Part shown: piece after piece, positions 12,284-54,044 of the stretch
Position numbering within the stretch: position 1 is the first letter of the stretch
How the letters are laid out: every line of letters starts with the position of its first letter
Assembly: GCA_016713425.1 (NCBI GenBank)
Contig: JADJPE010000005.1
Location: 992,111-1,056,110, forward strand
DNA: 64,000 bases
Direction: 5' to 3'
DNA from: Deltaproteobacteria bacterium
GTDB taxonomy: Bacteria > Myxococcota > Kuafuiibacteriia > Kuafuiibacteriales > Kuafuiibacteriaceae
Notes under the pieces: model-generated
Seen by the model: only the letters and a program-made list of their open reading frames with translations
Told to the model about the DNA's origin: nothing
The model's database searches: none
Position numbers and translations under genes: made by a program

Positions 12284-12284
12284 G

Positions 12285-12704: not shown

Positions 12705-12827
12705 CCCAGGATGGGGTAGACGCAGCCAGCACGCACTGTCAAGCCAGTGAGTTGCGGTCTGCCCCCGTTCAATGAGCAAGGGACGTCTGTTGCGGGCCAC
12801 CTGACATGATGCGCCGAAGCTGAAATA

Positions 12828-13415: not shown

Positions 13416-13628
13416 GATAAACAGCCCGCCAGGCGCGCTGGGTGCCCTCAGGAGGCGCCGCCGCCATCCGTCTTCGCTGATTGCGCACAAGACGCCTGTC
13501 TCGGAGTACAGGGCGTGACCTTGTTTCTGTCTGCGAAAAGTGTGAACAATCTCGGTCCGGTTTCGCCTGAAACATTTTCGCGGTCGGCGCGTAGATTCGG
13601 CGATCGAACCTATTCAACGGAGGTTTCT

Positions 13629-13949: not shown

Positions 13950-13982
13950 TCGGGCCCTAAGATAGCCGCGACCGCGTCGGCC

Positions 13983-22000: not shown

Positions 22001-24167
22001 TTCCAAGACCCGGTCCCCCTTCCAAGGTGATGATTTGCCCCACGCCGCGGCGCGCTTCTCGTAGGCAGCGATCGAGTTGCGCAAGCACCGCTTCGCGCTC
22101 CACGAGCGCCGTCGCCTCGCCACGATCCCACCGTTCCTCGCTGCGACGGTCGCCCTGATGCGTACCGACCACGCGATGCGGCATCATCGGCCGAGAACGC
22201 CCCTTCATCGCGAAGGACGGCTGTGGTTCAGTGCGAAACAACGACGACACCTGACGCTGGGCGTCAGTGCTCAGAAAGACCTCACCCCCATCGGCTTCGT
22301 CGGCCAACCGACGCGCAGTATCGAACGCCAGCCCGGCCATTCGATAGAGTTGGCCGACACCCTCCGAACGCCGCAAGACAACGAACCCGGTGTCGACCCC
22401 CGAGCACAAGAGGGTCGTCAAATCGATGGACTTTGGAAGCCCATCGCCGAGCGTTGGGACGCGATGGTGGATTTCCAGGGCAGCCTGAGCCGCCCGCAGG
22501 AGATCGTCTTCGCGTGTCGCATCGATGCCGAAAACCAAGGTCGCTGCAGCTTCGGACAGTCGATTGACAAGGCCTCCGTGGCCCTCAGTCACTGCCGTGA
22601 CCTCAGACCAAAGTCGAGACATGAAGGGTTCGAGCTCCGTGGGCGACAACGTCTCCATCAGCTCGGCGTACCGAGCCAACCTCGTAACGACGACGCTGAC
22701 CTGGCGACGCTCGCCCAAACCCGTGGCCACGAACGACGCCCCGGCCCCAGATTCTTGGTCGCCGCTGGATGCCGCAGCGAACGATCCGGAGGCAGGATCA
22801 AAGCCCGCAACAGGTATCGAACGAAGCGCTCGACCAAATGCTTGAATCGACGGCGGGCGGCCGGCCGGGTCTTTGACCAACGCGCCATGCACCACCTCGG
22901 CCAGGCGTTCGGAGATCTCTCGCCTCAGCGATCGAATCGAAGGGGGTTCCTCGTGAAGGATCGCGTAGATCGTCGCATGGTCGACATCGCCTCGGAATGG
23001 GCGATGTCCCGTCAGCATCTCGTAAACGACGACCCCCAAGGACCAAATGTCCGTGCGCGCATCCACCACGTCGCCCCGCGCCTGCTCGGGGCTCATGTAG
23101 GCGAGCGTACCGAGCCGAGAGTTCCCAACGGTCAGCGTCACATCCGTCATCTTGGCCACGCCGAAGTCCAGGATCTTGACGACTTGTTCCCGCGTAACCA
23201 ACAGATTCGCCGGCTTGATGTCGCGGTGAATAACACCTCGCGCATGCGCGCTCATGAGCCCGCGCGCCACTTGCAAGGTTAGGTCGAGCGCCTCCGGAAT
23301 CGGAAGCTGGCCTCTCTCCAAGCGCTGTTTGAGCGTCTCGCCTTCGTAGTAGGCCATCGCAATGAACGACTGCTCGGTGCCCACTTCGTCCCGCAAGGTC
23401 TGTCCAATCTCGTAAACCGTGCAGATGTTCGGGTGCTCCAGCGCGGCGGCGGCTCTGGCCTCGATGAAGAACCGCTGCTTCGCCGCTGCATTGCCCGCGA
23501 GCTGTGGGGGCAGAAACTTGAGCGCGACGGCACGATCGAGGCGCGTATCCTGCGCCCGATAGACCACACCCATACCCCCGCTGCCCAGGGGGGCTTCAAG
23601 CCGATACTGGGCGACCATTGTGCCCGGCATCAGGGCATCGAAATCGTGCCGCTCGGCCGACCGCTCGGCGCCGCGGGCTCGACCGGAGCCCGAACCGAAG
23701 GCGGGGGCCGATGCCGAAGCTGGTGCAGAAGCCGGTGCAGAAGCTGATGCAGAAGCTGATGCAGAAGCTGGTGTAGAAGCTGATGCAGAAGCCGGTGCAG
23801 AAGCCGGTGCAGAAGCCGGTAGAGAAGCCGAACTTCCGACCCGAAAGCCTGCCGAACGTTGAGGAGGGAGCGTCGAAGAAGGTATGACCGCCGTCGATTC
23901 GAATGGGCTGGAAACTCGAAACTGTTCGTCGCGGGGTGGGTCGAAATTCCCTGAGCGCCCCTCCGTCGCCTCATGGGCAGTCAGAAGTGCCTCGACGGCG
24001 CCTCGCACGACCTCGTCGTCCCGACAAGCTTCCGTGAGAAAACCTGGTCGTTCGGGTGGAGACAACCGGAGCGCTTGCCGAAAGAGCGCCTCGATCAAGA
24101 GCCAGTTGCGCATGCCTCTTCGTCTCTCAAGAGAGCTTCCGAAGAGTATTCTCACCCCGCGAACCAC
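19092..24167 (-). CDS. Multidomain STAND protein: Ser/Thr kinase, degenerate class III cyclase-like domain, AAA/NB-ARC-like ATPase, TPR repeats
   Basis: The kinase is intact (GSGGMGVVYRA, ALKF, HRDIKPANLLV, DFGVAK, SPEQ). An (SA/PA)n linker follows. The cyclase homology region (VSVVVTRLARYAELMETL...GGLVNRLSEAAATLVFG) has both metal-binding Asp replaced. The P-loop is LEGGPGLGKSRL with Walker B LVVLCLEDWHWAD. A C-terminal run of about 600 aa is TPR. Confidence 0.85.
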   Translation of the reverse strand: MVRGVRILFGSSLERRRGMRNWLLIEALFRQALRLSPPERPGFLTEACRDDEVVRGAVEALLTAHEATEGRSGNFDPPRDEQFRVSSPFESTAVIPSSTLPPQRSAGFRVGSSASLPASAPASAPASASASTPASASASASASAPASAPASASAPAFGSGSGRARGAERSAERHDFDALMPGTMVAQYRLEAPLGSGGMGVVYRAQDTRLDRAVALKFLPPQLAGNAAAKQRFFIEARAAAALEHPNICTVYEIGQTLRDEVGTEQSFIAMAYYEGETLKQRLERGQLPIPEALDLTLQVARGLMSAHARGVIHRDIKPANLLVTREQVVKILDFGVAKMTDVTLTVGNSRLGTLAYMSPEQARGDVVDARTDIWSLGVVVYEMLTGHRPFRGDVDHATIYAILHEEPPSIRSLRREISERLAEVVHGALVKDPAGRPPSIQAFGRALRSIPVAGFDPASGSFAAASSGDQESGAGASFVATGLGERRQVSVVVTRLARYAELMETLSPTELEPFMSRLWSEVTAVTEGHGGLVNRLSEAAATLVFGIDATREDDLLRAAQAALEIHHRVPTLGDGLPKSIDLTTLLCSGVDTGFVVLRRSEGVGQLYRMAGLAFDTARRLADEADGGEVFLSTDAQRQVSSLFRTEPQPSFAMKGRSRPMMPHRVVGTHQGDRRSEERWDRGEATALVEREAVLAQLDRCLREARRGVGQIITLEGGPGLGKSRLIQEFRRRIDDHDWRLCLGRCSPSTAALAYGPFVEIVRSLLVFDQSAETPVSSASSVADDVVSRVRQIDPDLEEFIPFYLSLLAMPHEAHPIPQHVAKEHLHLAIVEAIAALMVASSRHRLVVLCLEDWHWADASSRDVLRQIGELITTSAFLAIVTYRPDGTVDLGQPEHHTGITLNALSAQGTLAVLRSALGATLFPSDLAERVHDRTGGNPFFIEEVAHKLVEEAAIEVDAGRVVLRHSLEKIELPASVHAVIRARIDRMAPVLRRVLAVASVMERDIGRGVLQEALGEDTDVMTSLDLLRKAGLLQKVRVVPEPAYRFKNLLARDVAYESLLQHQRESIHLRVGNAIETLYKDRLNQHLDELAHHFSRSAEWRRAIHYGRMAVSRAESVYRFAEAHKLVEQVQGWIDKLPEGSERRRLLTEVLLGEERLCETLGLRGRQQQIIDELMLIVDPEGAGGELDALRVEILLRQGDLHTLLRQFGSATSALTQAREIARSLGNAVGERNALRSLGLLSWHQERYDEATTYMEAALTIDRAREDVAAVIGDLSNLGNVLKGKGDLARARDCLEEALAVADAEEKDKARTDLVEKKLNALHMLGAVHRSLGDLEKAAAYFQQGVVLGGESMLPIQRSYHLTSLAHVYLLQGRVDESLRLYEDSVKMCRKTRHATGLSQSLQVFGSILLTLERYEDAIAYLREAAEVFAQLESREDEFSMWAKVADAHEALGQFAPMLEAWRSGLASARLTMDPNRQIQALEGMGRASQRSNQDVAITIGYYAEALALAAEADDAATEVRLRNTMGILEWGRGAFSEALAHYERALALFRMAGDRRHEGLIRNSLGVTLRDLGRLQEAAEQLEQAVAINRETEQGLLEGHGLAALAGVRRQQGELNVAYDLYRQSLALRRRRGDRKGEGWMAYYLARISSEIGETARGRSEISIAIDIADELGDEMLRKVCRELGDLSS

Positions 24168-24334
24168 GCAACCTCATGCGCACCGGACAAGTCCCTGGTG
24201 GGTTGGCGTGCGCGCCTATGCGCTCAAATATTTGAACACAGGCCGTAAAGCCGGCGCGGGAACTGCCGATATTCCTACTCATGAGGCCCTTCGGTCGCGG
24301 CTGCGACGTAGGAGGCCGAAGGAGGTCATGTGAC

Positions 24335-25513
24335 ATGAGAATCGCCACATCCGACATTCAAATGGCGAGCAGACACGCGGCCGTCAGTCGTCGGGAGGTT
24401 AGAACCTCATCTCGGGTCTGGATTGGCGAGCGCCGCCCCAACTTCGAAGGCTCGCCCCCCCCGCTCTCGCCATCACCGGCCAACAGCACCGGAGCCGGTC
24501 GGTTAGACACCGTTCATCTCTCGAAAGCCGCGCTCGAAGCGAAACGCTGCAACGAAGTCACGCCCGCCGATACGGAAGTCTCGTCGGAAGACGAGACGAA
24601 GATGGCGCTCATCGTCAGCATGGTCGAGATCCTCACGGGTAAGAAGCTGAAGCTGTTCTCACCCAAGGAGTTCACCGAGGAACTCGAGCGGGCTCAGCGC
24701 GATGCAGAGTCGACTTCGAATGACCTCAACGAAGCGCGCGCCGGCCGCGACTCTCCGGCGCGTGGCCGGAACGACGGAGTTCGCGACCCCGTACGCACGA
24801 CCGAGGCCAACCGCGCGGAGGCGGGGAGCCCATCCTCGGGTTCGGGCTTCGGAGTGGAGTTCGACTACTACGAACGCCAGTTTGAGTCTGAGAAGACTGT
24901 GTTCACCGCGGATGGGGTCATGCGGACGAGGGACGGAAAGGAGGTTTCGTTCTCGGTGAACGTTGGCTTGAGCCGAGAGTTCATGCGCGAGCAGAGCATC
25001 TCTCTTCGCGCCGGTGATGCCGTCGTCAAAGATCCTCTCGTCCTCAACTTCGGTGGCTCCGCGGCCGAACTTACGAGTACTCGGTTCAACTTTGACATCG
25101 ATTCGGACGGACGTTCGGACCAAATCGCGTTTGTGGGTCCGAACAGCGGTTTCCTGGCGCTCGACCGAAATGTGGACGGCGTCATCAACGACGGCACGGA
25201 GCTGTTCGGCGCTCGAACCGGCGACGGATTCGCCGAGCTGGCCGCCTACGACGAGGACAACAACCAGTGGATCGATGAAAATGACTCGATCTATGAAGGT
25301 CTCCGGATCTGGTCAAAAGACGGCGAGGGCCGCGATAGCCTTCAGACGCTCGGCCAGCGGGGCGTGGGCGCGATCTATCTGGGTCACGTCGCAACACCGT
25401 TCTCGCTGAAAGATGGAAACAACGAACTTCAGGGGCAGATCCAAGCAACCGGCCTGTTCCTCGAGGAGAACGGTTCACCGGGCACGGTTCAGCAGATCGA
25501 CCTGGTCGTCTGA
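24335..25513 (+). CDS. Conserved hypothetical protein with EF-hand/dockerin-like DxDxDG calcium-binding loops
   Basis: An ATG at 24335 is preceded by GAAGGAGG. The loops are DIDSDGRSDQIAF, DRNVDGVINDGTELF and DEDNNQWIDENDSIY. It is divergent from the STAND gene. Confidence 0.55.
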   Translation: MRIATSDIQMASRHAAVSRREVRTSSRVWIGERRPNFEGSPPPLSPSPANSTGAGRLDTVHLSKAALEAKRCNEVTPADTEVSSEDETKMALIVSMVEILTGKKLKLFSPKEFTEELERAQRDAESTSNDLNEARAGRDSPARGRNDGVRDPVRTTEANRAEAGSPSSGSGFGVEFDYYERQFESEKTVFTADGVMRTRDGKEVSFSVNVGLSREFMREQSISLRAGDAVVKDPLVLNFGGSAAELTSTRFNFDIDSDGRSDQIAFVGPNSGFLALDRNVDGVINDGTELFGARTGDGFAELAAYDEDNNQWIDENDSIYEGLRIWSKDGEGRDSLQTLGQRGVGAIYLGHVATPFSLKDGNNELQGQIQATGLFLEENGSPGTVQQIDLVV

Positions 25514-25575: not shown

Positions 25576-28500
25576 TCACCCATCGGCGGAGCGTTTCAGG
25601 AGCGCTTGGAGCTTGAGGATCTCGACGAGCTCGACGAGCGGAGAGCCGAGCGCCCGAAACGCCTCGAGGTTCTGGATCGAGCTCTTCGCGAGTGGGATGA
25701 GTGCCTCGTTGAGCATCCGCGCTTGTTCGGCAATCAGATCCTCCACGCCCACTGGCGAGGCGCTCTGCACCACCACGCTGCTGGGGGGCTTCTCGGCGGC
25801 CGCTGATATCATCCGGCGAATTCCTTCGAGCTCATTCCCCAAGAGACCGATCGAAGCCGAGACGCGCGTCACCGGATCGTCATCCTTGCCCCCAAGTTGC
25901 TGACGTCGTCTGAACTCTCTCTTGATCTCCGCCCACCGAACCGCCGATTCCTCCGAGATCGTGCCCCGAAGCTCCGCGAGTTTGAGCAGATTGTGCTCCG
26001 CACCCGACGTAAGCGTCTGCGCTTCACGCGCGTAGTGCGCATCGATCAATGTCTCGAGCTCCATCGCGTCGAGCGCGGGGGCGACCCTCTCGGCGATCTT
26101 GTTCATATTCCGATAACTGCCCTGGAGCTTAAACGCCGGCTCGGTTCGATACTGGTCGTCCGTCGAAGCCGACCCAATGTAGGCTTTGTTCACGCTCAAG
26201 AGCACCGACTGAACTCGAAACAGATGCTTGAGAACAGCGACGACGTCCTGCGTCTCGAGCGCCGAGTAGCTCCGCGAGAAGGTCGAGACTGGGACCTCTT
26301 CACCCCTGGCCATCCGCACAAAACATCGAACATCGGCCAGCGATCGCGTCGCCACATGCCCGAGCACTGCGTTCGACGTGAGGGCGTTCTCGATGTAGCT
26401 CTCAGCAAAGAGATCCTCACGTCCATCCAAGACCTCGCCCAGATTGTAGACATCGGCTCGATTCGCCAACATGTCAGGCACCTGAAATCGATGACCGGAC
26501 TCGGTGTACGGATTTCCGGCCATCGCGACGCAGAATTTTCGGCCTCGGAGATCATACGTCTTCGTCTCGCCTCGCCAAACACCCTCGACCCGCCTCGAAC
26601 CATCGCAAAGCGAGATGAATTTCTGCAAGAAGACCGGGCTGGTGTGCTGAATGTCGTCCACGTAGAGCATGACGTTCGTCGCCATCTCGAAAGCCTGATT
26701 CAGCTTCTCGACCTCTTGGCGCGACGTTGCATTCGGAGCCTCCGTCGGGTCGAAAGACTCCACCTCGACCCCGAGCGCTGGGCCGTTGATCTTCATGAAG
26801 ACCATGCCAAGCTGATTCGCGACATATTCCATGAGGGTCGTCTTGCCGTATCCGGGAGGCGAAACGAGCAGCAGAAGACCCATGAGGTCAGTGCGTTTGG
26901 TCGCTCCGACCGCGCCGAGCTGTTTCGCGAGATTGTCTCCGATGAGCGGCAGATAGACCTCATCGATCAAGCGATTTCGCACGAACGATGTCAGAACCCG
27001 TGGCTTGAGCGCATCAACGCGAAGGCGCCGACTGGCCTCGACCAACATGCGTTGTCGCGCCTGCCGATAGGCTCGAAATCCGGGAACACGCGTACCGATG
27101 AAAGCCGAGAGGCGCGTCAAGAACTCATCGAGGCGACTCGAGAGCGTTCCCGACGCGACCCGTGCGTGTCTCGCCAAGAGGTCGCGGACCTCGAGCGTAA
27201 CATCGGCTCTGGTCCGTTCGCGATCGAGCTTCCCGTCGGTAACCAACGCCACGGCCGCTTCGCGAGTCGCCCACCGATGACCGGCCACCAGCGCGCCTTC
27301 GGGAAGATCGTCCATGAAGGCGCCTAGCCACGCCTCAGCCAGCGAAAGCTTCGCCGCCAGGTTGTCGTCGAGTGCGTGGATGTCGCTCTCGAAGGCGGTG
27401 CGCAAACCCTTCGCGTCGTAGTGCCGGACGAACGACTCCACAAGCGTCGCGCCCGCATCGCTCAGCACGAACCTTGGTCGCTCGACCTTGAGCTCCTCGA
27501 ACAGATATCGCGCCGCCGCCCGCACCTCGTCGTCGTGAGCGTCGAGTCCCCATTCCTCGAAGCGGCACAGCATGGCGCGTGCAATGTCGTCCCTCAGCCT
27601 GGACGCGGCATTCAACAGCGCCGAAGATTTCGGCAGACGTCCTAGACTAAAGGCGCGCCTCGCAAGTTCAGCCTTCGCCTTGTCGCTCGGCGAGAACGCC
27701 CAGAACAGCGTAGCAAGTCCACGCGCCTCAGGACTGAATCGCAGAAGACCGGCCGCGGCTTGGACCGTCAGAAGACGGCTCAAGATCCGCGCCGCATCAT
27801 GGTCGTGAATCCCCCGTTCGTAGCCCTCGTCGTACCGAGTCGCCGCAACTTCACGTACGATCGGTAGAAGCCCATCGGCGCCTTCGAGGTTGGCTTCGAT
27901 GAGCGACGCCATCGTCAACGAAGGCGCACCGCGCGCGTTCGCATTCGCATTCAGGTTCGGGCTCGTTCCCGCAATCAACGAACGCTCGGCTTCGAAGAAG
28001 ATCGAGCAGGCGAGAAACTCGCCCCGGCATACATCATCGCTCTCGGAAACTAGCGTCTGCGACCAATAGGATCGCGTGGCCAAGAAGGCTTCATCGTCGA
28101 CCCGCTCGTAGAACTCGGTACCGGTCAGATGAATCGCCATCCCGTCTTCACGCGGGACCATCGTGAGCTCGAAAGGCTGGACGTTGACGTTGAACTTGTG
28201 CCGCCCAAGCCGAATGACGTCGGCCCCATCCTCGAAGAGTTCGAGTCGATCGCGAAGCTGTCGCACGGCGTCCTGGCCGCACGCCTTGAGCTTCGCCACC
28301 ACCTCGTCCGACCTCAGACTGTCCCCGAGCGCGGCGAGTTCGGCGGCAAGCGACCGAACCTTTGCCACCATCGCATCGCCGGCGAAATAAGCGTTGAGTT
28401 CGGCCTCACTCTTGAAGCTTTTCGCTCTCCGCTCAACGCTCGATAGAATGCGATTCGCCGCCTGAACGATGCTGTCGATGCGCCGATTCTGTGCGTCGAC

Positions 28501-30843
28501 CAAGGTCTGTCGTTTGGCGGCCACCGCTTCCACGATCTCTTGACGCTTGTCCGCCAAATCAGGGGTGAACTCGGACACGTCACCGAAGCGACTCTCGAGC
28601 TCCTCGATCTGCACGAGAAGACGCGCCTCCTCGAGATCGCAGCGCGCTGGCGTATCAGCCATCGCAACCGCATTCGCGATCGACTGGGCGAGAAGTTTGA
28701 GCTGAGCCCCGAACTCGTGGCGGCTTTCCTGGGTTCGAAGAACTTGCCGCCGCCCTTCGACGGCCGCGCGAGCGCGATTCTGGTGCGACAAGGCCTCAGC
28801 GATATCATCGAGAATCTGGGTGCGCTTGAGCGCATCGTCGATCTTGAGGTTCGCGACGATCTCCGAGAGCGAAGCCAAACCCTCGCTGCTCTCAACCACC
28901 TCGTTCTCGAGCGGCGCGAGGTCGGTCAACCGGTCGACGCGCGCCGACCCATCCACCAACGCCTCGGCGCGCGTACGAAGCGGCTCGAAAGATCGTGGGT
29001 CGAGTAGGAGATCGGTGCAATGGGCCCCTACGCGGTCAAGCGCCTCAACAATCTCGCCTTCGAGCTGGTCGAGACGCTCCAGGTCGATATACCGGACATC
29101 ACGCTTGGTCATGAGGCGCCCGCGATGTCCCTTGAGCGCAGCCAGCGCATGCGTAAACTCGTCGAGCTTCGACCAATTGTCGGGCCGAACCTCCCGAAGC
29201 AAGTTATGTTGCTCAACCTCCGTCTGCTCGAGTGTCGCGCGCGCGACGCGCCGAAGCGCTTGAACCTTCTCGAACTCGGCGACGATCAAATCGGCGTTCC
29301 GCTTGAGTTCAGCGATCTCTGACTTCAGATCCCCAACGTCATCGGCCGAAAGCCAATAGTAGTCGTCGAGCATGCGGGTTGCGTTCTTGATGAGATCTTC
29401 GAAAGTCGACCGCGCCGGCGCGTCCGAGTTGGCCAATCGGCCGAGACTCAACGCATCTGAAATGCCACGTACGAGGTCTCGATTCCCAACCTTGGAAAGG
29501 AACGATCCGTCGGTGGGTTCGCGCGCTGCGTACTCGTCCGACATGAACGGCGTTCGCCAAAGCTGCATGGCGTGCACACGGGAGGGCTCAGGATTCGTGG
29601 TGCGACAAAGAATCATGGTCCCGTCTTCGAGAAACGCAAAGCCCTCGCATTGAAGCGGCGTCTTGACCTCTTTTCGGATGACGTTGTACGGGAGCAGCGT
29701 GTAAAGGCCCGCCTCCCGGTCATAGAAGGCATAGAGAACATCCTCTCCGTTGGGTGAAGGATAGACGCGTTTGAATTCGAGTGCGCCGGGGTTGGGATCG
29801 AAGACCTTCGACACCCCATCGCTCAAGCAATAGCCGCCGGGGAAGATGATCCCATGTTCCTCCGGGAGCTGCACACACGCCAAACCGATCGCATCGATCC
29901 GTTCCACGGTCTGGCTCCGTACGCTGAACACAAGATAGCGCCATCGCTCTTCAGCGTAGGGGCGGATCTTGAGCAAGATGAGCTCGCCGAGCTTTGCATA
30001 CTGGATATCGGCGTCATCCAGCGACTGCCGCGGATCGTCGACGGGCTCGCGGTAGATCCCGAGACCATCGTGGGTGTTGTTCTCGATCTTGACCGTAAGA
30101 TCGCCTCCCACCGTCTCAACGAACACTTCGTCCAGGATCGATACATGCGGGTGCTTGCCCACCACATGATCTTCTCGCCGCGTCCGAATCCACTCAAAGT
30201 CGTGGCTCGGCGGGAAAACGTGTTCGTCATCGCCTCGGTTGTCGATGTACGAGACCCGGCCATCGTCCGTCACCGACCAACGAAAGACCTTCACATCGTT
30301 CGTGGTCGCGCCGATCTGGAAAACAGCCAGGAGCCGCCCGGCGGGTCTTCGAATCTGAACAAGACGCGCCGACTTGTAGTACTGATAAAGTTCCGAGAAA
30401 TCCCGCTTGAAGTCAGGACCGTCGAATAGACCGGGAATCGACGCCTCCGTCAGCAAAGACGCATCGACACCTCCGTCGGTCGGCTCGATCGTGAAGAGCG
30501 TAAATACGTCGCGGACGGCAACCTCACGCCGAAGACCAAGGTGAACGTTGTGACCCAAGATCAACGTACCATCGATGTGGGCAAGGTCGCGCGGGCGTGC
30601 GCTCTGCTCGGTACGAACGCGCGTATTGCCAATAACCTGAAGCTCTATGCCTCCGAAAGCCGCCTTGCGCTTCTCATTGAGGGCGTTCGCCTTCGCCCCG
30701 AGGCGCGAGGCCCCTTCGCGGAGCCTCGCCCGCAGGACCTCGTAGCTACCCCCGTCGAGTCCTCCCCCTGCTGCGGCTTGCGCGCCATCAGGACCAGGCG
30801 TCTTTTCGACCGCCCCCGCGTCGAGCGATTTGTCAGCAGTCAT
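25576..30843 (-). CDS. Giant (1755 aa) soluble protein with a single AAA_5 (MoxR/dynein-like) ATPase core and long coiled coils
   Basis: Walker A is GLLLLVSPPGYGKTTLMEY, Walker B is VMLYVDDIQH, and the sensor-1/Arg region is KFCVAMAGNPYTESGHRFQVPDMLANRADVYNLGEV. About 1150 aa lie N-terminal of the ATPase, including a beta-rich N-domain and extended coiled-coil segments. I see no TM helices. Confidence 0.85.
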   Translation of the reverse strand: MTADKSLDAGAVEKTPGPDGAQAAAGGGLDGGSYEVLRARLREGASRLGAKANALNEKRKAAFGGIELQVIGNTRVRTEQSARPRDLAHIDGTLILGHNVHLGLRREVAVRDVFTLFTIEPTDGGVDASLLTEASIPGLFDGPDFKRDFSELYQYYKSARLVQIRRPAGRLLAVFQIGATTNDVKVFRWSVTDDGRVSYIDNRGDDEHVFPPSHDFEWIRTRREDHVVGKHPHVSILDEVFVETVGGDLTVKIENNTHDGLGIYREPVDDPRQSLDDADIQYAKLGELILLKIRPYAEERWRYLVFSVRSQTVERIDAIGLACVQLPEEHGIIFPGGYCLSDGVSKVFDPNPGALEFKRVYPSPNGEDVLYAFYDREAGLYTLLPYNVIRKEVKTPLQCEGFAFLEDGTMILCRTTNPEPSRVHAMQLWRTPFMSDEYAAREPTDGSFLSKVGNRDLVRGISDALSLGRLANSDAPARSTFEDLIKNATRMLDDYYWLSADDVGDLKSEIAELKRNADLIVAEFEKVQALRRVARATLEQTEVEQHNLLREVRPDNWSKLDEFTHALAALKGHRGRLMTKRDVRYIDLERLDQLEGEIVEALDRVGAHCTDLLLDPRSFEPLRTRAEALVDGSARVDRLTDLAPLENEVVESSEGLASLSEIVANLKIDDALKRTQILDDIAEALSHQNRARAAVEGRRQVLRTQESRHEFGAQLKLLAQSIANAVAMADTPARCDLEEARLLVQIEELESRFGDVSEFTPDLADKRQEIVEAVAAKRQTLVDAQNRRIDSIVQAANRILSSVERRAKSFKSEAELNAYFAGDAMVAKVRSLAAELAALGDSLRSDEVVAKLKACGQDAVRQLRDRLELFEDGADVIRLGRHKFNVNVQPFELTMVPREDGMAIHLTGTEFYERVDDEAFLATRSYWSQTLVSESDDVCRGEFLACSIFFEAERSLIAGTSPNLNANANARGAPSLTMASLIEANLEGADGLLPIVREVAATRYDEGYERGIHDHDAARILSRLLTVQAAAGLLRFSPEARGLATLFWAFSPSDKAKAELARRAFSLGRLPKSSALLNAASRLRDDIARAMLCRFEEWGLDAHDDEVRAAARYLFEELKVERPRFVLSDAGATLVESFVRHYDAKGLRTAFESDIHALDDNLAAKLSLAEAWLGAFMDDLPEGALVAGHRWATREAAVALVTDGKLDRERTRADVTLEVRDLLARHARVASGTLSSRLDEFLTRLSAFIGTRVPGFRAYRQARQRMLVEASRRLRVDALKPRVLTSFVRNRLIDEVYLPLIGDNLAKQLGAVGATKRTDLMGLLLLVSPPGYGKTTLMEYVANQLGMVFMKINGPALGVEVESFDPTEAPNATSRQEVEKLNQAFEMATNVMLYVDDIQHTSPVFLQKFISLCDGSRRVEGVWRGETKTYDLRGRKFCVAMAGNPYTESGHRFQVPDMLANRADVYNLGEVLDGREDLFAESYIENALTSNAVLGHVATRSLADVRCFVRMARGEEVPVSTFSRSYSALETQDVVAVLKHLFRVQSVLLSVNKAYIGSASTDDQYRTEPAFKLQGSYRNMNKIAERVAPALDAMELETLIDAHYAREAQTLTSGAEHNLLKLAELRGTISEESAVRWAEIKREFRRRQQLGGKDDDPVTRVSASIGLLGNELEGIRRMISAAAEKPPSSVVVQSASPVGVEDLIAEQARMLNEALIPLAKSSIQNLEAFRALGSPLVELVEILKLQALLKRSADG

Positions 30844-30955
30844 ATCGAAGCCGCTCCATCAAGATCATTCGTCTAGGCCACATGGTCGGTCGCTCGAACC
30901 GGCTCGACCAGCGTTGGTTTCGCTCGATCGAGCCGGCCTTCGACCGGTGTTCGTT

Positions 30956-33067
30956 TCAGTTGACACCTTTGCTGGACACATCAAGGCCAAGCTCCCTGGC
31001 CTTTTCGATCAGACGCTCGAGCTTCGCCCGGGTCGCACCGTCGGCACCGAGCATCGCCTGTGAGAGAAAGGCCGCTACGCTCAGGTTCTGGAGCTCTTTT
31101 GAGCCGGTCGGCAGCGCCTTCAAAATCTCGTTCGGGAGGTTCGCATTGCCGCTCAGATAGTCACCGAAGAGCTTTTGCAGCGTCGCCGATTGATCAACCA
31201 ACCCATCGGCCGACTGCCCAAGAGACACCGCTCGGATGAACTGGTCGAAGAACGCGCCATCGCCACCGACGATGTTGATCTTGGCATGCTCGAAGGCCTC
31301 CTTGAGGATCGTCGCCCGTGCTTCGGCGATATCCTTTCGCACCTTGATCTCCGCGAGGTCGATGTCTCGCTCCTTCTCGAGCTTGAGGCGAAACTCCTCG
31401 TGCTCGCGTCCCACGCCATCCAGGAGCTTCATCGCATCGGCCTTGCTCCGAAGGCCCTCAGCTTCCGCATTCAGGCGCTCACGCACCGCAACCGCTTCCG
31501 CCGTCCCGAGCTTCTCGCGGGCGGCCGCATCCGCTTCCTTGACCTTGGCGGCCGCAAGACCCTTCTCCTGGTCGCCTTGCGCCTCGGCCAGCATTTGATG
31601 CCGGGTCACGGAGGCTTGTGCAAGACCTTCCTTCTCGAGCGCCACCGCGTGGGCTTCCTTCACTCGAACATCAGCCAATCCTCGCGCAGCGGCCTCAGCC
31701 TGGACACCTTCCGCCAGCCGAATCTTGGCGCGGGCCTGGCGGTCTGAGGCTTCGACATCGGCTTCAGCCAAGGTGATCTTCTGCTTCGCCTTGAACTTTG
31801 CGACTTCCTCCTCGGCCTCAGCCAGACGAACGTGCCCGATGAGTTCCTCTTGCGCCCGCGCTTCTGCCGCCGTCACTTGGACTTCCTTGGTTCGCTTGGC
31901 TTCCGCAATCGCGCGCAAGTCCTTGATGCGTTCCTCCTCCTCAGCCACGGTCTTGTCGACGACGATTCGAGAGCGGATCACGTCCGCGATCTCCTTACGC
32001 TGAACCTCGATTTCCTTTTCTTTCGCGATCTGAGCCAAGTTCGTCTCTCGCTCGCGCGAAATCGCCTCGAGCATCCGGTCTTTTTCGACGCGCTCGCTCT
32101 CGACGAGCACGATGCGCTCCCGATTCTTGCGCGCGACCTCGACCTGCCTTTGCTTCGCCTCTTCGCCGACCTGGACTTCTTCATCCGCCTGGATCTGTGC
32201 GATCGCCGCTTTCCTGTTTTCTTCCGCCTGCACGCGCTGCGTTTCAGCGGTTTCGCGCGCTTGCACGGTCGCGATCTCCCGCGCCTGCTTGGCGCGCGCG
32301 TCCGCTTCCTGTCGTTCCAACGCCAAGATTGCCTCAGCCGCCTCGACGTTCTGCTTCTTGATGGCCTTGCGTTCGCTCTGCCGGAGCTCATTGGTTCGAA
32401 TACTCTCGGCGGTCGTCAGCTCGGTGATCTTCTTGATGCCTTGCGCATCGAGGATGTTGTCCTTGTCGAGCGCATCGATCGGCGTCTGCTCTAGGAAGTC
32501 GATGGCCGCGTCTTCAAGGCTGTACCCATTCAGATCTTGCCCGATTTCCTTCTTGATACGATCACGGAAATCGTCTCGCTGAGTGTAGAGGTCGATGAAG
32601 TCGAGCTGTTTCCCGACCGTCTTGAGTGCTTCGGAGAACTTTGCCTGAAATAGCTCCTCGAGCGTCTCGCGCTGCGATGCGCGATCGCATCCCACCTGCG
32701 AGGCGACCTTGAGCACGCTATCGGTGTCTTTGTTGACCTTCACGAAGAAGGTGACCTTGATGTCGGCGCGAATGTTGTCGTGACAGATGAGGCCTTCTTT
32801 GCCCCGACGGTCGATCTCGATCGTCTTGACCGAGATGTCCATGATCTCGGCTTTGTGCACAATCGGAAGGACGAGACCCCCCTTGAACGTCACTTCGGGT
32901 TCTTTGCCACTGATCTTGTTGATGATGAGCGCCCGACCTTGCTCGACCTTTCGGTAGAACTTGGACACCATGAACGCGAATCCAACAAACACGAGAATGA
33001 CCGCACCCACCGCGGTTCCAAGGAATATGAGCGTATCTACAGACATTGTTCTACCCATCTGCCACAA
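30956..33067 (-). CDS. Flotillin-like SPFH/Band-7 protein (YqiK/FloT type)
   Basis: An N-terminal TM anchor precedes the SPFH domain (RALIINKISGKEPEVTFKGGLVLPIVHKAEIMDISVKTIEI...). About 450 aa of E/A/K/R/Q-rich coiled coil follow, and the C-terminus is typical of flotillins. Total length is 703 aa. Confidence 0.9.
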   Translation of the reverse strand: MWQMGRTMSVDTLIFLGTAVGAVILVFVGFAFMVSKFYRKVEQGRALIINKISGKEPEVTFKGGLVLPIVHKAEIMDISVKTIEIDRRGKEGLICHDNIRADIKVTFFVKVNKDTDSVLKVASQVGCDRASQRETLEELFQAKFSEALKTVGKQLDFIDLYTQRDDFRDRIKKEIGQDLNGYSLEDAAIDFLEQTPIDALDKDNILDAQGIKKITELTTAESIRTNELRQSERKAIKKQNVEAAEAILALERQEADARAKQAREIATVQARETAETQRVQAEENRKAAIAQIQADEEVQVGEEAKQRQVEVARKNRERIVLVESERVEKDRMLEAISRERETNLAQIAKEKEIEVQRKEIADVIRSRIVVDKTVAEEEERIKDLRAIAEAKRTKEVQVTAAEARAQEELIGHVRLAEAEEEVAKFKAKQKITLAEADVEASDRQARAKIRLAEGVQAEAAARGLADVRVKEAHAVALEKEGLAQASVTRHQMLAEAQGDQEKGLAAAKVKEADAAAREKLGTAEAVAVRERLNAEAEGLRSKADAMKLLDGVGREHEEFRLKLEKERDIDLAEIKVRKDIAEARATILKEAFEHAKINIVGGDGAFFDQFIRAVSLGQSADGLVDQSATLQKLFGDYLSGNANLPNEILKALPTGSKELQNLSVAAFLSQAMLGADGATRAKLERLIEKARELGLDVSSKGVN

Positions 33068-33105
33068 GGCACGAGAAACCTAGTTCAACCTAACCCAACT
33101 TGCCT

Positions 33106-34044
33106 TCACGCTGACCGGTTCGACCGACCTTGGTCCGTATCGCCCCAATCAAACGCTTCAACATAATAGAGCTCACGAGCGGCGTCATAATCGACGATCA
33201 ACGCTTCCTGCCCTTTGGAGAGACGCCCGCCCGGACGACATCGAACCGGAACCAGGAGCTCATGGCCACCCGTTCCCACGCGCGCCTCTCCAAAGACGTC
33301 ATCGACGTAGCCGGTGATGATCGTGCATGTCGTTCCGACGATATCGGTTCGACGCGGTGCCGTTTGCGTCAAAAAGAGTGGGCCGAGCGGCCGCGAGAGC
33401 ATCCCCGCGACCGGCAGCGACGCGACAAACGAAGCACCGAGCACGAGGATCCCGAAGCCCCAATGAGTGAAGGGCGATCCGATCGACGTGAGAAAGAGCG
33501 CGCCCAGATACGAGAAGGCCCAACTCACCAAGATCGAGAAACTAAGCACGACCGTAACCGGCGCACGACGAAGGCCAAGTGATGAAACAAGCCCCATGAG
33601 CGAAAGACCGTCGGCTGCAGTGCCCAAGCTCGATGGCCCCGCACTCACCGTCCCCATCGTACTCATCGCAGCCATCGCCGACGGAGAGACGCTCGCCACC
33701 GCGACCGCCGATGCCGCACCCTCCGCCAAGCCTTCGGTACCGCCCTCTGCCAGTCCTTCCGCGGCACCCTCCGCCAATCCTTCCGCGGCACCCTCCGCCA
33801 ATCCTTCCGCGGCACCCTCTGCTAGTCCTTCCGCGGCACCCTCTGCAGCGCCCTCGCCAAGACCTTCGAGTTGGCTTGTCGGGTCGAGGAGTGCCACATC
33901 GAGTGCGCCGACGATCACAAAGCCCCAGTAAAGCACCACGATGATGAGCGCCCCACTGAACACGATGGTGGGAAAAGAGAGTGCCAAGGTGAGGAATTCG
34001 TTCACGAAAGGACCTCGATGCGACAGCGCGAAAGCCGAGGACAT
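33106..34044 (-). CDS. YqiJ/NfeD-like inner-membrane protein (flotillin partner) with an (AEGAAEGL)n repeat linker
   Basis: The N-terminal TM pair LTLALSFPTIVFSGALIIVVLYWGFVIVGALDVALLD resembles E. coli YqiJ. Further TM helices follow. The C-terminal OB-fold-like GTTCTIITGYVDDVFGEARVGTGGHELLVPVRCRPGGRLSKGQEALIVDY resembles NfeD. It sits 38 nt upstream of the flotillin gene. Confidence 0.7.
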   Translation of the reverse strand: MSSAFALSHRGPFVNEFLTLALSFPTIVFSGALIIVVLYWGFVIVGALDVALLDPTSQLEGLGEGAAEGAAEGLAEGAAEGLAEGAAEGLAEGAAEGLAEGGTEGLAEGAASAVAVASVSPSAMAAMSTMGTVSAGPSSLGTAADGLSLMGLVSSLGLRRAPVTVVLSFSILVSWAFSYLGALFLTSIGSPFTHWGFGILVLGASFVASLPVAGMLSRPLGPLFLTQTAPRRTDIVGTTCTIITGYVDDVFGEARVGTGGHELLVPVRCRPGGRLSKGQEALIVDYDAARELYYVEAFDWGDTDQGRSNRSA

Positions 34045-34343
34045 TCGTGACTTGCGAGCGACACGCGATCAGGTAGAAGCACCTCGGCTTCGATGTCCAG
34101 CCCCCGGATCGAAAACGCAGACGGGTTGCTGTCGACCGGTCCGTCGACGAATGGACAGGTACTCGATGCGCCTAAAAGCCTACCGCGGCGCATCCTCAAC
34201 GGCGCATCGGTCCGAAACCCGAGCCCGAAGCGCACGCCCGCAAGACTCGACGCTCGATAGGCTTCCGCATACGGCCCGCATCCTCTAGAGTCCGGCCTTA
34301 GCGATAACGCCGTTGCAGAAGGCGCAACCGCGGAGCAAACCGG

Positions 34344-34970
34344 ATGAAACGACACTCGCCTTCCGCCGAGCGCAACAAGGGTCCGATTGGAGACGTCCTC
34401 GGCCACGTTCTATCGGCCTCGGGCCGAGCGCTTGAAGTCGCAAGCGGCTCTGGCCAACACGTGGTCGAGCTCGCGCGACGATTTCCGAGCTGGTCGTGGC
34501 AGCCGACCGATCCCGACCCGGACGCGATCGCAAGCATTGAAGCCTATCGGACAGAGAGCGAGCACCTCAATATACGCCCCGCCCTCCGACTCGACGTGTG
34601 CGTCGAGCCTTGGCCTGTTGACGCGGTCGATCTCGTCCTCGCCATCAACATGATTCACATCGCTCCGTTTGAAGCGGCCGTCGCGCTCTTTGGTGGCGCA
34701 GCACGGAGACTCCCGCCGAAGGAAGGACTCCTTGTCACGTACGGCCCATACTCTGAGAACGGCGTGCTCGAGCCGGAGAGCAATCGCGCATTCGATCGCT
34801 CGCTTCGCGACCGCAATCCCGCGTGGGGAATTCGTGATCTCACGGAGCTCGATCGCCTGGCGACGACATCAGGACTCGAGCGAACTGAAACCTTCGAGAT
34901 GCCCGCGAATAATCGTCTCTTGGTGTTTCGATGCGTTGGGGCTGCGTCATCCGTAACCCAAGCCACTTAG
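34344..34970 (+). CDS. DUF938 family protein (SAM-dependent methyltransferase-like fold)
   Basis: Motifs: ERNKGPI..VL, LEVASGSGQHVVELARRFP..WQPTDPD, NMIHIAP, YGPY...G..EPESNRAFDRSLRDRNPAWGIRD, MPANNRLLVFR. Confidence 0.75.
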   Translation: MKRHSPSAERNKGPIGDVLGHVLSASGRALEVASGSGQHVVELARRFPSWSWQPTDPDPDAIASIEAYRTESEHLNIRPALRLDVCVEPWPVDAVDLVLAINMIHIAPFEAAVALFGGAARRLPPKEGLLVTYGPYSENGVLEPESNRAFDRSLRDRNPAWGIRDLTELDRLATTSGLERTETFEMPANNRLLVFRCVGAASSVTQAT

Positions 34971-35009: not shown

Positions 35010-36536
35010 CTAGGAGGATGAACGTTGCGCGCCCTGGACTCTGGGACGCCGAATGACCGTCTTCTTGGCTTGAGTCGATCCCGACGCCGACGCCGATGTC
35101 GTCTTCGTTTTCTTCGTCGTCATGGGGCTAACGGAGCGTGTGTGCTCTGCCGGTGCGGCGGCGATCCCATCCGCCACGCGCGTGTGTGATGACGGCTTCT
35201 CTGTATCCCGAGCCTTCTCGTTCTTCTTCGACCTCTTCCGCTGGGTACGCGGCGGCAGACTGCTCGATTGCGCAGAATGGTTCGCGCAAGCCTCGCCAAG
35301 CGATGCGCCCTCAACGTCCCCAACCGCGACCGGGTCCAAGAGCGAAGGAATCTCGTCAGGCGCCACGGCCTCGTCAGGCGCCACGACCTCGTCAGCCGCC
35401 ACGACCTCGTCAGCCGCCACGACCTCGTCAGGCGCCACGACCTCGTCAGGCGCCACGACCTCGTCAGGCGCCACGACCTCGTCAGGCGCCACGACCTCGT
35501 CAGCCGCCACGACCTCGTCAGCCGCCACGACCTCGTCAGCCGCCACGACTTCGTCAGGCGCCGCGGCCTCTTCAAGACCGGCGACCACCTCGGGCGCCGG
35601 GACGCTGTCGGGTGCTGCGGCCTCAATCACGACCGCATCGACACGATCAGCGTGGGGATCCGCGTCCGCGGGCGACGGGCAAAGGAATGCGTCCGACACC
35701 TTTGTTGTGTCCGTCTCCTCGAGCGCTTCGTTTGCGGCCACCGTGCGGGTCACTCGCCCCGAACGTTTCTTCGGCCGTGTGGGGAACGCGAGGCGGGTGA
35801 AGGCTTCGTCGTAAAATATCAGGGCGGCCTCGAGCAGAAGACGGGCTTGGCGAAGAATGCGCTCAACCTCTTTCGCGCGACAGAGTAAACGCTGCCGCAA
35901 CGCCTCAGCCTCCGCGGCCGAGAGGTCGGAGCCCGCCTGCGCGGCCCTAATGGCATCTCGTTGGGCGCGAAGCTGATCGACGACCGGTTGCGCGAAAGCA
36001 TACGCGGGCTCTTCAGCGAGAAGCCGCGCAACATACCCAGTTCGCAGGCGTCGTTCGAAGTCTTCGGCGTACTCATCGAGGGCCTCGAGCCGAGCCTTGC
36101 GAAGCTGCTCGAACTTCCGGACTGGGAACAGGACCTCGGCAATCGGCGCGCGTGCGCCAAGGTGGAACGTGATCCCCGCCAGCAATCGCTCGAGCGTATC
36201 GACCCACGGAACGGCAAGACTCAGCGCATGTTCTTCGCGGGCGAACGCAAATTCGGGCAGGCCGCGCACTTCGGCGAGAAGCTCGGCGCTCTCCGCCTCG
36301 GTGCGCATCAAGATCTCGGCCGCGATGGACACGATCGCACGGGCTCGATCAGCGCCTTCGATCTCCTCCAGACGCGCATGAGCCAAGAGCGCGCGCTCGT
36401 GCGCCACACTGAGGAGCAGGATCCAGTCGTAGGCATCGAAGCAATCCATCTTCCAAGAGCGGGTTAACACGTTCAGACTCTGTGGCCATCGCCAATCGAA
36501 CGCCAAAGGCCGTGACATCCTTGACCCAAGGCGCAC
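35010..36536 (-). CDS. Hypothetical protein with an internal (DEVVAA/DEVVAP)x~14 tandem repeat and a basic K/T/S-rich C-terminus
   Basis: An alpha-helical N-domain is followed by an 18-nt coding tandem repeat at about 35350-35575 and then a Lys-rich tail. I find no known domain. Confidence 0.5.
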   Translation of the reverse strand: MRLGSRMSRPLAFDWRWPQSLNVLTRSWKMDCFDAYDWILLLSVAHERALLAHARLEEIEGADRARAIVSIAAEILMRTEAESAELLAEVRGLPEFAFAREEHALSLAVPWVDTLERLLAGITFHLGARAPIAEVLFPVRKFEQLRKARLEALDEYAEDFERRLRTGYVARLLAEEPAYAFAQPVVDQLRAQRDAIRAAQAGSDLSAAEAEALRQRLLCRAKEVERILRQARLLLEAALIFYDEAFTRLAFPTRPKKRSGRVTRTVAANEALEETDTTKVSDAFLCPSPADADPHADRVDAVVIEAAAPDSVPAPEVVAGLEEAAAPDEVVAADEVVAADEVVAADEVVAPDEVVAPDEVVAPDEVVAPDEVVAADEVVAADEVVAPDEAVAPDEIPSLLDPVAVGDVEGASLGEACANHSAQSSSLPPRTQRKRSKKNEKARDTEKPSSHTRVADGIAAAPAEHTRSVSPMTTKKTKTTSASASGSTQAKKTVIRRPRVQGAQRSSS

Positions 36537-36557: not shown

Positions 36558-37889
36558 GTGGCCACCAGCCAGTCGTTCAGATCTTTCGATCCCGATCCGT
36601 CGGCCCGTTCGTCCCCGGCCCGATTGTCCGCGGCCCGATTGTCCGCGGCCCGATTGTCCGCGGCCCGATTGTCCGCGGCCCGATTGTCCGCGGCCCGATT
36701 GTCCGCGGCCCGTTTGTCCCCGACCGCACTCTCCCTATGGGATGCCCTCAGGATCGCGGCTGTTCTCACATCGACCACCGCCACGTGGTTGTGGGTCATC
36801 GGCTGTACGGGCTGTAGCCGCGAAGAGACAGGTGAAGCCAAGCCTCAGACGAAGGGGTCAGGGACCATCACCTTTCCAGTCGACGTCGCGCCCGTAAAAA
36901 CGCAGCCCGCGGACTACCGCATCGAGGCGGTCGGAACCATCGAGGCTTTCGAAGAGGTGCAGGTCACCTCACGGGTGGGTGGCGTCGTGGAACGGGTTGC
37001 TTTTGCGGAAGGCGACAGCGTTCAGGAGGGCAACCGACTCGTGTTCATCGAGCCGAAGCGCTATCGGCTCGCGGTCGAAGCCGCGCGCGCGACGTTGGCG
37101 CGGGCGCAAGCCGAGAAGGCGAGCGCGGAGCTTGCGCTCAAGCGTCGGGTCGACGCCAACGCCAAGAGCCCGGGGCTCGTGCGGAACGAAGACATCGACC
37201 AGGCCCGCGCACGCTTCGACATTGCGAGCGCGGCGGAGGCTGAGGCCCGCTCGGCCGCGAGTCTGGCGGAGCTCAATCTCCGCGACGCATACGTCCAGGC
37301 ACCGGTGTCGGGAACGATCGACACCCGCATCGTCTCCACCGGGCAATACGTTCAGCCCGGCACGAAGCTCGCTACGATCGTCCGGCGCGAACCACTCTTG
37401 TTTCGGTTCAGGGTCTCCGAGGCCGAAGCGGAGCGTCTGTCGGTTGGTGTGCCTCTCACCTTCGCGGTGCGTGGACAATCTGGCACGTTCGATGCGCGCA
37501 TCACCCACGTGGCCGAAACCGCCGACTCGACCTCCCGCATGGTCGCGATCACCTCCGAAGTCACCGACAAGCGACGCGACGTCCTGAGACCCGGCTCGTT
37601 TGCCCAAGCCACCGTCGAGGTCGGCGGCGAGCGGGAAGTACTCGTCATCAGCGAGACCGCCGTACGCCCGACAGAGCGCGGCTTCTTGGTTTTCGTCGTC
37701 GAAGGCGAGCGTGCGCGAGCCCAAGTCGTGGAGCTGGGGCTTCGAACGGCGAACGGCATGATCGAGGTTCGGACGGGTCTTCATGTGGATGACATGATCG
37801 TCGTGCGGGGTGGCGAAGCGCTTCGCGAAGGTGCAAAGGTGCGCATCACAGAGCCAGGGACGGGCGTCCGGAAAGACGGCGCCTCTTGA
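36558..37889 (+). CDS. Efflux RND periplasmic adaptor subunit (membrane fusion protein)
   Basis: A lipoprotein-type signal LWVIGCTGC follows the repeat tract. The region YRIEAVGTIEAFEEVQVTSRVGGVV...GDSVQEGNRLVFIE carries a biotinyl/lipoyl-like motif, followed by a coiled-coil hairpin, beta-barrel and MP domains. The true start may be one of the in-frame TTG codons inside the 15-nt repeat. The stop overlaps the permease start (ATGA). Confidence 0.8.
   Translation: MATSQSFRSFDPDPSARSSPARLSAARLSAARLSAARLSAARLSAARLSAARLSPTALSLWDALRIAAVLTSTTATWLWVIGCTGCSREETGEAKPQTKGSGTITFPVDVAPVKTQPADYRIEAVGTIEAFEEVQVTSRVGGVVERVAFAEGDSVQEGNRLVFIEPKRYRLAVEAARATLARAQAEKASAELALKRRVDANAKSPGLVRNEDIDQARARFDIASAAEAEARSAASLAELNLRDAYVQAPVSGTIDTRIVSTGQYVQPGTKLATIVRREPLLFRFRVSEAEAERLSVGVPLTFAVRGQSGTFDARITHVAETADSTSRMVAITSEVTDKRRDVLRPGSFAQATVEVGGEREVLVISETAVRPTERGFLVFVVEGERARAQVVELGLRTANGMIEVRTGLHVDDMIVVRGGEALREGAKVRITEPGTGVRKDGAS
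36601..36735. repeat. 15-nt tandem repeat (cggcccgattgtccg), 6 perfect plus 2-3 variant units, in the leader/5' coding region of the RND adaptor gene
   Basis: Read directly from 36601 to 36735. In the adaptor-gene frame it encodes (ARLSA)n. The unit length is a multiple of 3. Confidence 0.9.
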
Positions 37890-40960: not shown

Positions 40961-41275
40961 CCCGGTCACATCGTGACCGCGACGGCACGACGCATCAGAC
41001 ATCGACTTACATTTAGGGTGAGCAACCGTATCAGACACCTCATCCTTCAGGCTGCGGCCTGGCGGTCACACTCGAGCCGCGGGTGGCTGCAACTGCGCGG
41101 AGATCTTTACTCATTACCGGCCGGTCAACATGTGGTCAAAGAGCCACACGTGAGAAACCGCACGGTTCCGCGCTCAAACCGTTCGGTTTCTAAGGATTCC
41201 CCGGTGTCGCCCCTGGAGACAATTCTCATTGGCCAAACCGAATGGCACCATGATTGCTATCCAGCGGGCGCAACA

Positions 41276-42730: not shown

Positions 42731-42851
42731 CCCTCCCTCGCTCCTAGCCCGCCGGCGCTCCTAGCCCACCCTCGCTCCTAGCCCGCCCTCGCTCCTTGGC
42801 CCGCTGGCGCTCCTAGCCCGCCGGCGCTCCTAGCCCACCGGCGCTCGCCAG
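42723..42851. repeat. Intergenic 17-nt tandem repeat (gctcctagcccgccggc and variants), 7 units
   Basis: The units run from 42723 to 42842 with a partial unit to 42851. Each unit contains CTAG. The first unit contains the TAG stop of the M23 peptidase gene. The array ends 2 nt before the TTG start of the Hsp70-like gene. Confidence 0.9.
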
Positions 42852-42852
42852 T

Positions 42853-54042: not shown

Positions 54043-54044
54043 CT

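Follow-up and report, generated by a model that had tools for sequence, protein, structure and literature searches.

Ravi et al. (mSystems 2024, PMC11237479; bioRxiv 2020) reported a CesT/Tir-PspA operon that gains three further genes. According to that paper, these genes encode YqiJ/YuaF, a Band-7/flotillin protein and a 'beta-propeller + coiled-coil + AAA+ ATPase'. The paper also describes an 'abbreviated operon' without PspA as widely distributed, proposes a role for the operon in sub-membrane dynamics, and gives in Table S3 a Dokdonia example with the same gene order. We analyzed the corresponding trio of genes in a stretch of 64,000 nucleotides from a Deltaproteobacteria bacterium (contig JADJPE010000005.1), which is called the window. 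The three open reading frames (ORFs) are as follows.

33106..34044, minus strand: YqiJ/YuaF (short NfeD)-like protein of 312 aa (ORF and translation)
30956..33067, minus strand: YqiK-type flotillin of 703 aa, TTG start (ORF)
25576..30843, minus strand: DUF3686-family soluble ATPase of 1755 aa (ORF, Pfam)

These positions, taken from the ORF list, agree with a preliminary description of this DNA, as do the gaps of 38 nt between the YqiJ-like and flotillin genes and 112 nt between the flotillin and ATPase genes. That description regarded the architecture as new. However, the operon, including the form without PspA, is explicit in Ravi et al. The window matches the operon seen there in all three proteins, their order and their orientation, and differs from it in having neither the CesT/Tir-PspA pair nor the PLD hydrolase. 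Since no PspA is present in the window, the locus corresponds to the 'abbreviated' form. A Hymenobacter plasmid locus (Tir-like chaperone, PspA, DUF1449, flotillin and 'DNA repair ATPase') matches the Dokdonia example. Because this locus repeats the published architecture and its ATPase is 42.7% identical to that of the window, the window contains the same system. We are therefore highly confident that the locus is a member of a conserved YqiJ/NfeD-flotillin-giant ATPase operon in its PspA-less form. As a whole, the best explanation, to which we give a probability of roughly 0.55, is that this conserved operon encodes a membrane-proximal, ATP-driven remodeller working with a cytoplasmic flotillin-NfeD cage.

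To examine the gene arrangement, loci were scanned with one genome per species. At least 597 loci with a relative of the ATPase were obtained, and the best 80 were retained; these came from Myxococcota, Actinomycetota, Gammaproteobacteria, Acidobacteriota, Planctomycetota, Eremiobacterota and others. Among the 80 loci with enough upstream DNA, 79 have the flotillin gene as the immediate upstream, same-strand neighbour of the ATPase gene. By tblastn with the window flotillin, a same-strand flotillin homologue was detected in all 80 loci with DNA upstream of the ATPase gene. The three genes are clearly not neighbours by chance, given their recurrence in 79 of 80 loci that represent six or more phyla, and the synteny check proposed in the preliminary description thus gives a strongly positive answer. 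A YqiJ-like homologue was found upstream of the flotillin gene in most of 84 loci, and the trio also recurred in two additional loci of a planctomycete and an alphaproteobacterial metagenome-assembled genome (MAG). When the other neighbouring ORFs were clustered without bias, none was common to more than 14 of 82 loci. Thus, the conserved unit is the trio.

The median gap between the flotillin and ATPase genes was 34 nt across the loci. In at least nine loci, nearly all from actinomycetes, the two genes had a 4-nt stop/start overlap. Such overlaps are a signature of translational coupling, and thus the unit is often translationally coupled. The pairwise identities of the flotillins and the ATPases were strongly correlated over 67 loci (r = 0.94; 0 of 999 in the Mantel test), which fits inheritance as a unit. 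The exception to direct adjacency was L018, in which the flotillin gene (1302-3590) and the ATPase gene (9956-15736) are 6.4 kb apart. In L011 and L016, the YqiJ-like gene is 2.9 and 1.4 kb, respectively, from the flotillin gene. The interruptions of several kb in a few Myxococcota loci may be insertions.

The ATPase is a member of the Pfam family DUF3686 (PF12458; E 1.6e-192, 640 bits against a gathering cutoff of 25) and also matches DUF7902 (PF25472; E 3.3e-19). The family is large: a word-indexed search gave at least 5990 sequences at E <= 1e-10, and the N-terminal domain alone gave 731 cluster representatives at 50% identity. In these representatives the domain is always N-terminal, and the proteins have about 1600-1900 aa when complete. 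The protein is soluble, as had been described, because no transmembrane (TM) segment was seen in the hydropathy analysis. Its parts are located as follows.

29356..30699, minus strand: DUF3686 N-terminal domain, residues 49-496, beta-rich and propeller-like
28744..28992, minus strand: DUF7902, residues 618-700, inside a charged helical/coiled-coil spacer (Pfam)
26164..26907, minus strand: single AAA+ module, about residues 1313-1560

The sequence of the ATPase gave no solved relative in the PDB, either with the single protein or with profiles of the N- and C-terminal regions; the matches were at Walker-A level at most. AlphaFold2 models were built from window fragments aligned with full-length database homologues (61-sequence alignments). 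The model of residues 25-560 (mean predicted confidence, pLDDT, 88.6; pTM 0.85) shows a long N-terminal helix (residues 33-63), the beta-rich module and a helical bundle that follows it. Structural matches of the module to propellers were weak but consistent. A MIT-like reading of the bundle was considered; the MIT matches were no better than those to unrelated or generic helical bundles. The spacer of about 400 residues (about 500-900) is rich in charge; across residues 501-900 the composition is 35-43% charged and 4-7% Pro plus Gly. The model of residues 880-1755 (pLDDT 83.6) shows a mostly helical domain, one AAA+ module of alpha/beta-plus-lid type and a helical tail. From the N-terminus, the protein consists of a divergent N-domain resembling a beta-propeller, then a long coiled coil, then a helical domain and then its one AAA+ module.

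A motif search found a single P-loop in the 1755 aa, and the ATPase motifs occur once each as described: GYGKTT at 1331, MLYVDD at 1392, AMAGNPYTESGHRF at 1440 and NRAD at 1461. The length of the sequence before the core had been given as about 1150 aa; since the core starts near residue 1313, about 1300 aa precede it. The idea that a further, degenerate AAA domain precedes the core was also considered and rejected, because residues 880-1290 are modelled as mostly helical and only one P-loop is present. The Pfam AAA models cover residues 1324-1447. PF00004 (31.8 bits) spans just the half from Walker A to Walker B (residues 1324-1399), and AAA_5 (PF07728; residues 1324-1447) is below its gathering score (19.3 bits against 22). 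By fold, the nearest solved structures are the MoxR-type CbbQ and NorQ, midasin and dynein, and the models place the module in the MoxR/dynein-like clade.

Walker A K1334, Walker B D1396-D1397, sensor-1 N1444 and R1462 were invariant in every alignment made. Judged by these residues, the single module looks catalytically intact and is apparently competent. The Walker B motif (MLYVDDIQH) has Asp-Asp (D1396-D1397; window 26653-26658) in place of the usual Asp-Glu, and this pair is fixed in alignments of 14, 43 and 61 sequences. The substitution may mean slow or regulated hydrolysis. Neither a peptidase domain nor a sigma-54 activator or PspF-type helix-turn-helix domain was detected in the ATPase with Pfam.

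The second gene of the trio encodes a YqiK-type flotillin, in agreement with the preliminary description. BLASTP against E. coli YqiK gave E 2e-34 with 28% identity over 434 aa, and hhalign gave 99.9%. The protein has one N-terminal TM segment (residues 7-39 by hydropathy) followed by K/R residues, a SPFH/Band-7 domain, a long Ala/Glu-rich coiled coil and a conserved C-terminal region. The trio flotillins are 47-69% identical across phyla, and their C-terminal residues, about 220, are unaligned with YqiK in hhalign. The alignment of homologues favours ATG 33046 over TTG 33067 and suggests that the likely product has 696 aa, with a gap of 59 nt. The Band_7 model scores 31.3 bits (cutoff 23.6) for the 703-aa ORF and 13.1 bits for the 696-aa form, and 6 of 32 flotillin homologues pass the threshold. 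Since the score falls in this way without the first seven residues, the Pfam call for this subfamily is fragile. The flotillin profile, searched against PDB sequences in the same set as the ATPase profiles, gave Walker-A-level matches or nothing.

The first gene was confirmed as YqiJ/NfeD-like by hhalign against E. coli YqiJ (93.2%, E 3e-7) with a profile of 30 homologues, whereas the pairwise BLASTP with YqiJ was not significant and no Pfam match was obtained. Three hydrophobic segments were detected by hydropathy (residues 16-55, 162-189 and 195-217). The hhalign match covers TM2-TM3 and the C-terminal soluble domain, which aligns with the C-terminal part of E. coli YqiJ. The Hymenobacter homologue is annotated as DUF1449. 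The (AEGAAEGL)n linker seen in the preliminary description is present and is encoded by the following element.

33716..33843, minus strand: 24-nt tandem repeat, 5.3 copies, encoding the acidic (AEGAAEGL)n linker between TM1 and TM2 (Tandem Repeats Finder)

This linker had been taken as a hint of an extended assembly. In the alignment, most homologues lack it or have a short version, and in some Myxococcota and a MAG from an alphaproteobacterium it has up to about 130 aa. Since its length varies between lineages and it is mostly absent, the linker is not a conserved assembly element. In the window, the acidic Gly/Ala-rich linker is a recent-looking 24-nt tandem array. K/R residues flank the TM2-TM3 hairpin on the side of the linker and the C-terminal domain. 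From the positive-inside rule, we infer a cytoplasmic location for the soluble parts of both membrane proteins (the SPFH/coiled-coil part of the flotillin and, in the YqiJ-like protein, the C-terminal domain), on the same side as the ATPase.

Extended forms of the operon were also found. A CesT/Tir-like gene (YjfI) and a PspA/IM30 gene are directly upstream in about ten gammaproteobacterial loci, in the Pseudomonas megaplasmid pQBR103 and in the Hymenobacter plasmid. In pQBR103 (L083; NC_009444.1, 84461-97641), the trio is fused with a complete yjf-type polyamine/PspA cluster; the genes run in the order YjfI, PspA, rhomboid, DUF2491, DUF350, DUF1190, a glutathionylspermidine-synthase-like gene, the YqiJ-like gene, SPFH and the ATPase; an MvaT-family gene follows the trio on the opposite strand. 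The trio itself has the same gene arrangement on the plasmids of Pseudomonas and Hymenobacter. The ATPase gene is directly followed in seven loci of Gammaproteobacteria by a gene for a rhomboid intramembrane protease (about 188 aa; Pfam Rhomboid, E 3.6e-19), which overlaps or adjoins the end of the ATPase gene, in many cases right at the stop codon. No mention of a rhomboid protease for this operon was found in the accessible part of Ravi et al. (PMC11237479). The rhomboid genes, in locus coordinates, are as follows.

L047, 15421-15978: rhomboid gene after the ATPase gene
L052, 15319-15891: rhomboid gene after the ATPase gene
L068, 15196-15759: rhomboid gene after the ATPase gene
L071, 15175-15750: rhomboid gene after the ATPase gene
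L074, 7268-7834: rhomboid gene after the ATPase gene
L075, 15201-15764: rhomboid gene after the ATPase gene
L081, 14889-15458: rhomboid gene after the ATPase gene
L083 (pQBR103), 1415-1969: rhomboid gene after PspA

Both the CesT/Tir-PspA pair and the rhomboid gene are absent from the window. For PspA, the 64-kb window was searched by tblastn and with a PspA hidden Markov model (HMM). A marginal HMM match at 54012-54785 (11.8 bits, E 0.005) was rejected, because an ORF in that frame (54045-54788) has no Pfam match.

Closed membrane domes are built by SPFH proteins with or without NfeD partners; examples cited in PMC13086221, PMC11260169 and PMC13000311 are HflK/C, the cytoplasm-protruding QmcA-YbbJ and Flot1/2. 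Since a patch of membrane is covered by a cage or dome in the solved structures of SPFH and SPFH-NfeD assemblies, the flotillin and the YqiJ-like protein probably build a similar structure on the inner membrane. The ATPase would probably oligomerise via its AAA+ ring; AAA+ proteins of the MoxR type form rings that remodel specific partner complexes. By means of propeller heads at the ends of long coiled-coil arms, the ATPase would dock on the flotillin-NfeD cage or on proteins held there. ATP hydrolysis would then assemble, open, turn over or recycle, or remodel the complex in the maintenance or repair of the membrane under stress. In the lineages with the fused CesT/Tir-PspA pair (and, in Gammaproteobacteria, also the rhomboid gene), the same machine would work with PspA polymers. 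The PspA and rhomboid neighbours, as a membrane-stress context, support the explanation by a remodeller at a flotillin-NfeD cage, as do the synteny, the close or overlapping genes, the co-inheritance, the folds and the invariant ATPase residues. The remodelling mechanism itself is tentative, at somewhat less than even odds. A more specific form of it is doubtful: the ATPase would be a hexameric MoxR-like motor with six coiled-coil arms, each tipped by a propeller, that hold the cytoplasmic flotillin-NfeD dome (and, in genomes that have them, PspA polymers) and open it, take it apart or recycle it. Such a motor would be an ATP-driven regulator of bacterial sub-membrane scaffolds, a functional counterpart of Vps4 acting on ESCRT-III and the first known energy-dependent step in the dynamics of flotillin microdomains.

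Several points weigh against the remodeller explanation. The window has no PspA. The rate or mode of hydrolysis is uncertain, since the Walker B motif is Asp-Asp and not Asp-Glu. The propeller-like domain has weak structural neighbours only, and thus its binding role is a guess. The correlated divergence of flotillin and ATPase is expected of any two genes inherited together. The ATPase has no linked VWA-domain protein, the usual partner of MoxR; no recurrent VWA gene was detected among the neighbourhood clusters, and L002 has a single non-conserved one, 5' of the ATPase gene at a distance of about 6.7 kb. In the literature searched, no experimental work on the ATPase family or the operon was found, and targeted searches for a link between the ATPase and flotillin gave nothing.

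The alternative that survives best, although unlikely, is that the ATPase chiefly remodels or disassembles PspA/IM30 polymers as a Vps4 analogue. The flotillin and the YqiJ-like protein would then be just a membrane platform, and in this organism PspA would be encoded elsewhere. The linkage of the ATPase to PspA in a subset of genomes is the basis of this alternative. However, essentially all of the 84 loci have flotillin as a neighbour, but only about 12 have PspA. The AAA+ module has a MoxR/dynein-like and not a Vps4-like fold, and both the MIT comparison and the PspA search in the window, given above, speak against this alternative.

A role of the trio in conflict, against phages or otherwise, with a large NTPase coupled to a sensor or effector at the membrane, is improbable. 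Defence systems often contain large NTPases with several domains. The distribution across phyla is patchy despite high sequence conservation, and the ATPase family occurs in 13 PLSDB records labelled as plasmids, among them megaplasmids, chromids and several records of chromosome size; these points favour a conflict system. Against it, PADLOC-DB 2.0 gave generic AAA similarity only (TRIP13, mad8 and IetA; E 1e-4 or weaker) and no match for the flotillin or the YqiJ-like protein. No copy of the ATPase family was detected in 50,697 phage records, and the neighbourhoods contained no recurrent defence genes; the recurrent extra partners are PspA, the CesT/Tir-like protein, the rhomboid protease and polyamine-metabolism genes.

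Finally, it is very improbable that the protein is a DNA-repair ATPase and its adjacency to flotillin functionally meaningless: the NCBI name 'DNA repair ATPase' for the protein and its relatives, the Pfam description of DUF3686 ('ATPase involved in DNA repair') and RuvB among the top Foldseek AAA+ matches (E 4e-6) speak for it, whereas the domain search found no DNA-related domain, a repair role is without support from domains, gene context or the literature searched, and the gene context is all membrane-related; the name appears to be wrong.

The following elements lie between or next to the three genes.

30844..30955, minus strand: flotillin-ATPase spacer, 112 nt (consensus scan)
34045..34343, no strand: divergent intergenic region, 299 nt, between the YqiJ-like gene and the DUF938 methyltransferase gene
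34344-34970, plus strand: DUF938 methyltransferase gene

By consensus scan, neither a consensus promoter nor an intrinsic terminator was detected on the coding strand in either gap of the trio. The 112-nt spacer contains GGAG about 10 nt 5' of the ATPase ATG. The divergent region 34045..34343 is presumed to be the promoter region of the operon; a consensus scan of its minus strand gave no sigma-70-like site.

Downstream of the ATPase gene, a convergent ORF of 410 aa (24281-25513, plus strand) has no Pfam or NCBIfam match. On the other side, an ORF of 508 aa (35010-36536, minus strand) has no Pfam match, and its NCBIfam match, wall_bind_EntB, is far below threshold (17.2 bits against a cutoff of 780). 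These two flanking ORFs may or may not be genes in DNA of 61% GC. Beyond the convergent ORF, 19092-24167 (minus strand) encodes a 1691-aa protein with Ser/Thr kinase, AAA_16 and TPR parts, a STAND-like regulator whose adjacency to the trio is not conserved in other loci. The plus-strand region 36558-44214 contains an RND efflux pair (HlyD-type, 36558-37889; AcrB-type, 37886-40960), an M23 peptidase gene (40973-42730) and a Hsp70/MreB-like ATPase gene (42853-44214). These upstream genes are envelope-related, yet they are not kept beside the trio elsewhere.

How SPFH/flotillin cages and PspA polymers are assembled and disassembled in bacteria is a standing question. According to a 2025 review (PMC7619361), no Vps4-like ATPase is known for bacterial PspA. 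According to PMC13086221, bacterial flotillin knock-outs often have weak phenotypes, and the survey of SPFH proteins of P. aeruginosa reported there does not include the trio ATPase. Since an ATPase of 1600-1900 residues shares an operon with flotillin in at least six phyla, it is the most obvious candidate for an energy-consuming partner. The locus is a further instance of a system already in the literature, and it is therefore a good experimental target and not a discovery. Ravi et al. give no structure, AAA+ clade assignment or quantified synteny. Our analysis adds to that neighbourhood note the quantified synteny, including the frequent overlap of flotillin stop and ATPase start, structure models with good confidence for the N- and C-terminal parts of the ATPase, the model-based placement of the AAA+ module in the MoxR/dynein-like clade, and the recurrent rhomboid protease partner in Gammaproteobacteria. 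If the ATPase is indeed an energy-dependent regulator of flotillin or PspA scaffolds, the interest of the system rises sharply.

Among the known systems, the NfeD-flotillin pairs, E. coli yqiJ-yqiK and B. subtilis yuaF-floT, share with the trio a homologous flotillin, a remotely homologous YqiJ-like protein and the gene order. As the preliminary description stated, E. coli K-12 has yqiJ-yqiK only, with no ATPase gene downstream, and a DNA search of 5,426 E. coli genomes detected no member of the ATPase family. The trio flotillin is 28% identical to YqiK. HflK/C-FtsH, the precedent named in the preliminary description, resembles the trio in that a SPFH scaffold is paired with an AAA+ machine. 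However, FtsH is a membrane-anchored, classical-AAA protease (M41) enclosed on the periplasmic side, whereas the trio ATPase has neither a TM segment nor a peptidase domain, its fold is MoxR-like, and its flotillin is predicted to face the cytoplasm.

A VWA-domain partner gene is typical of MoxR operons. The MoxR-type chaperones (CbbQ-CbbO, NorQ-NorD and RavA-ViaA) have about 300 aa and a VWA partner. Compared with MoxR, midasin and dynein (AAA_5), the trio ATPase has a propeller, a coiled coil and a helical domain, together about 1300 aa, in front of its AAA+ module; its Walker B is Asp-Asp, its AAA_5 match is sub-threshold and no VWA gene is linked to it. From PspF-PspA, the trio ATPase differs in lacking the sigma-54 activator and helix-turn-helix domains of PspF. 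From Vps4-ESCRT-III, it differs in belonging to another AAA+ clade, in having no convincing MIT domain and in that its linkage to PspA is facultative. What the trio shares with both of these systems is an AAA+ ATPase that, in a subset of genomes, is genetically linked to PspA, a member of the ESCRT-III superfamily.

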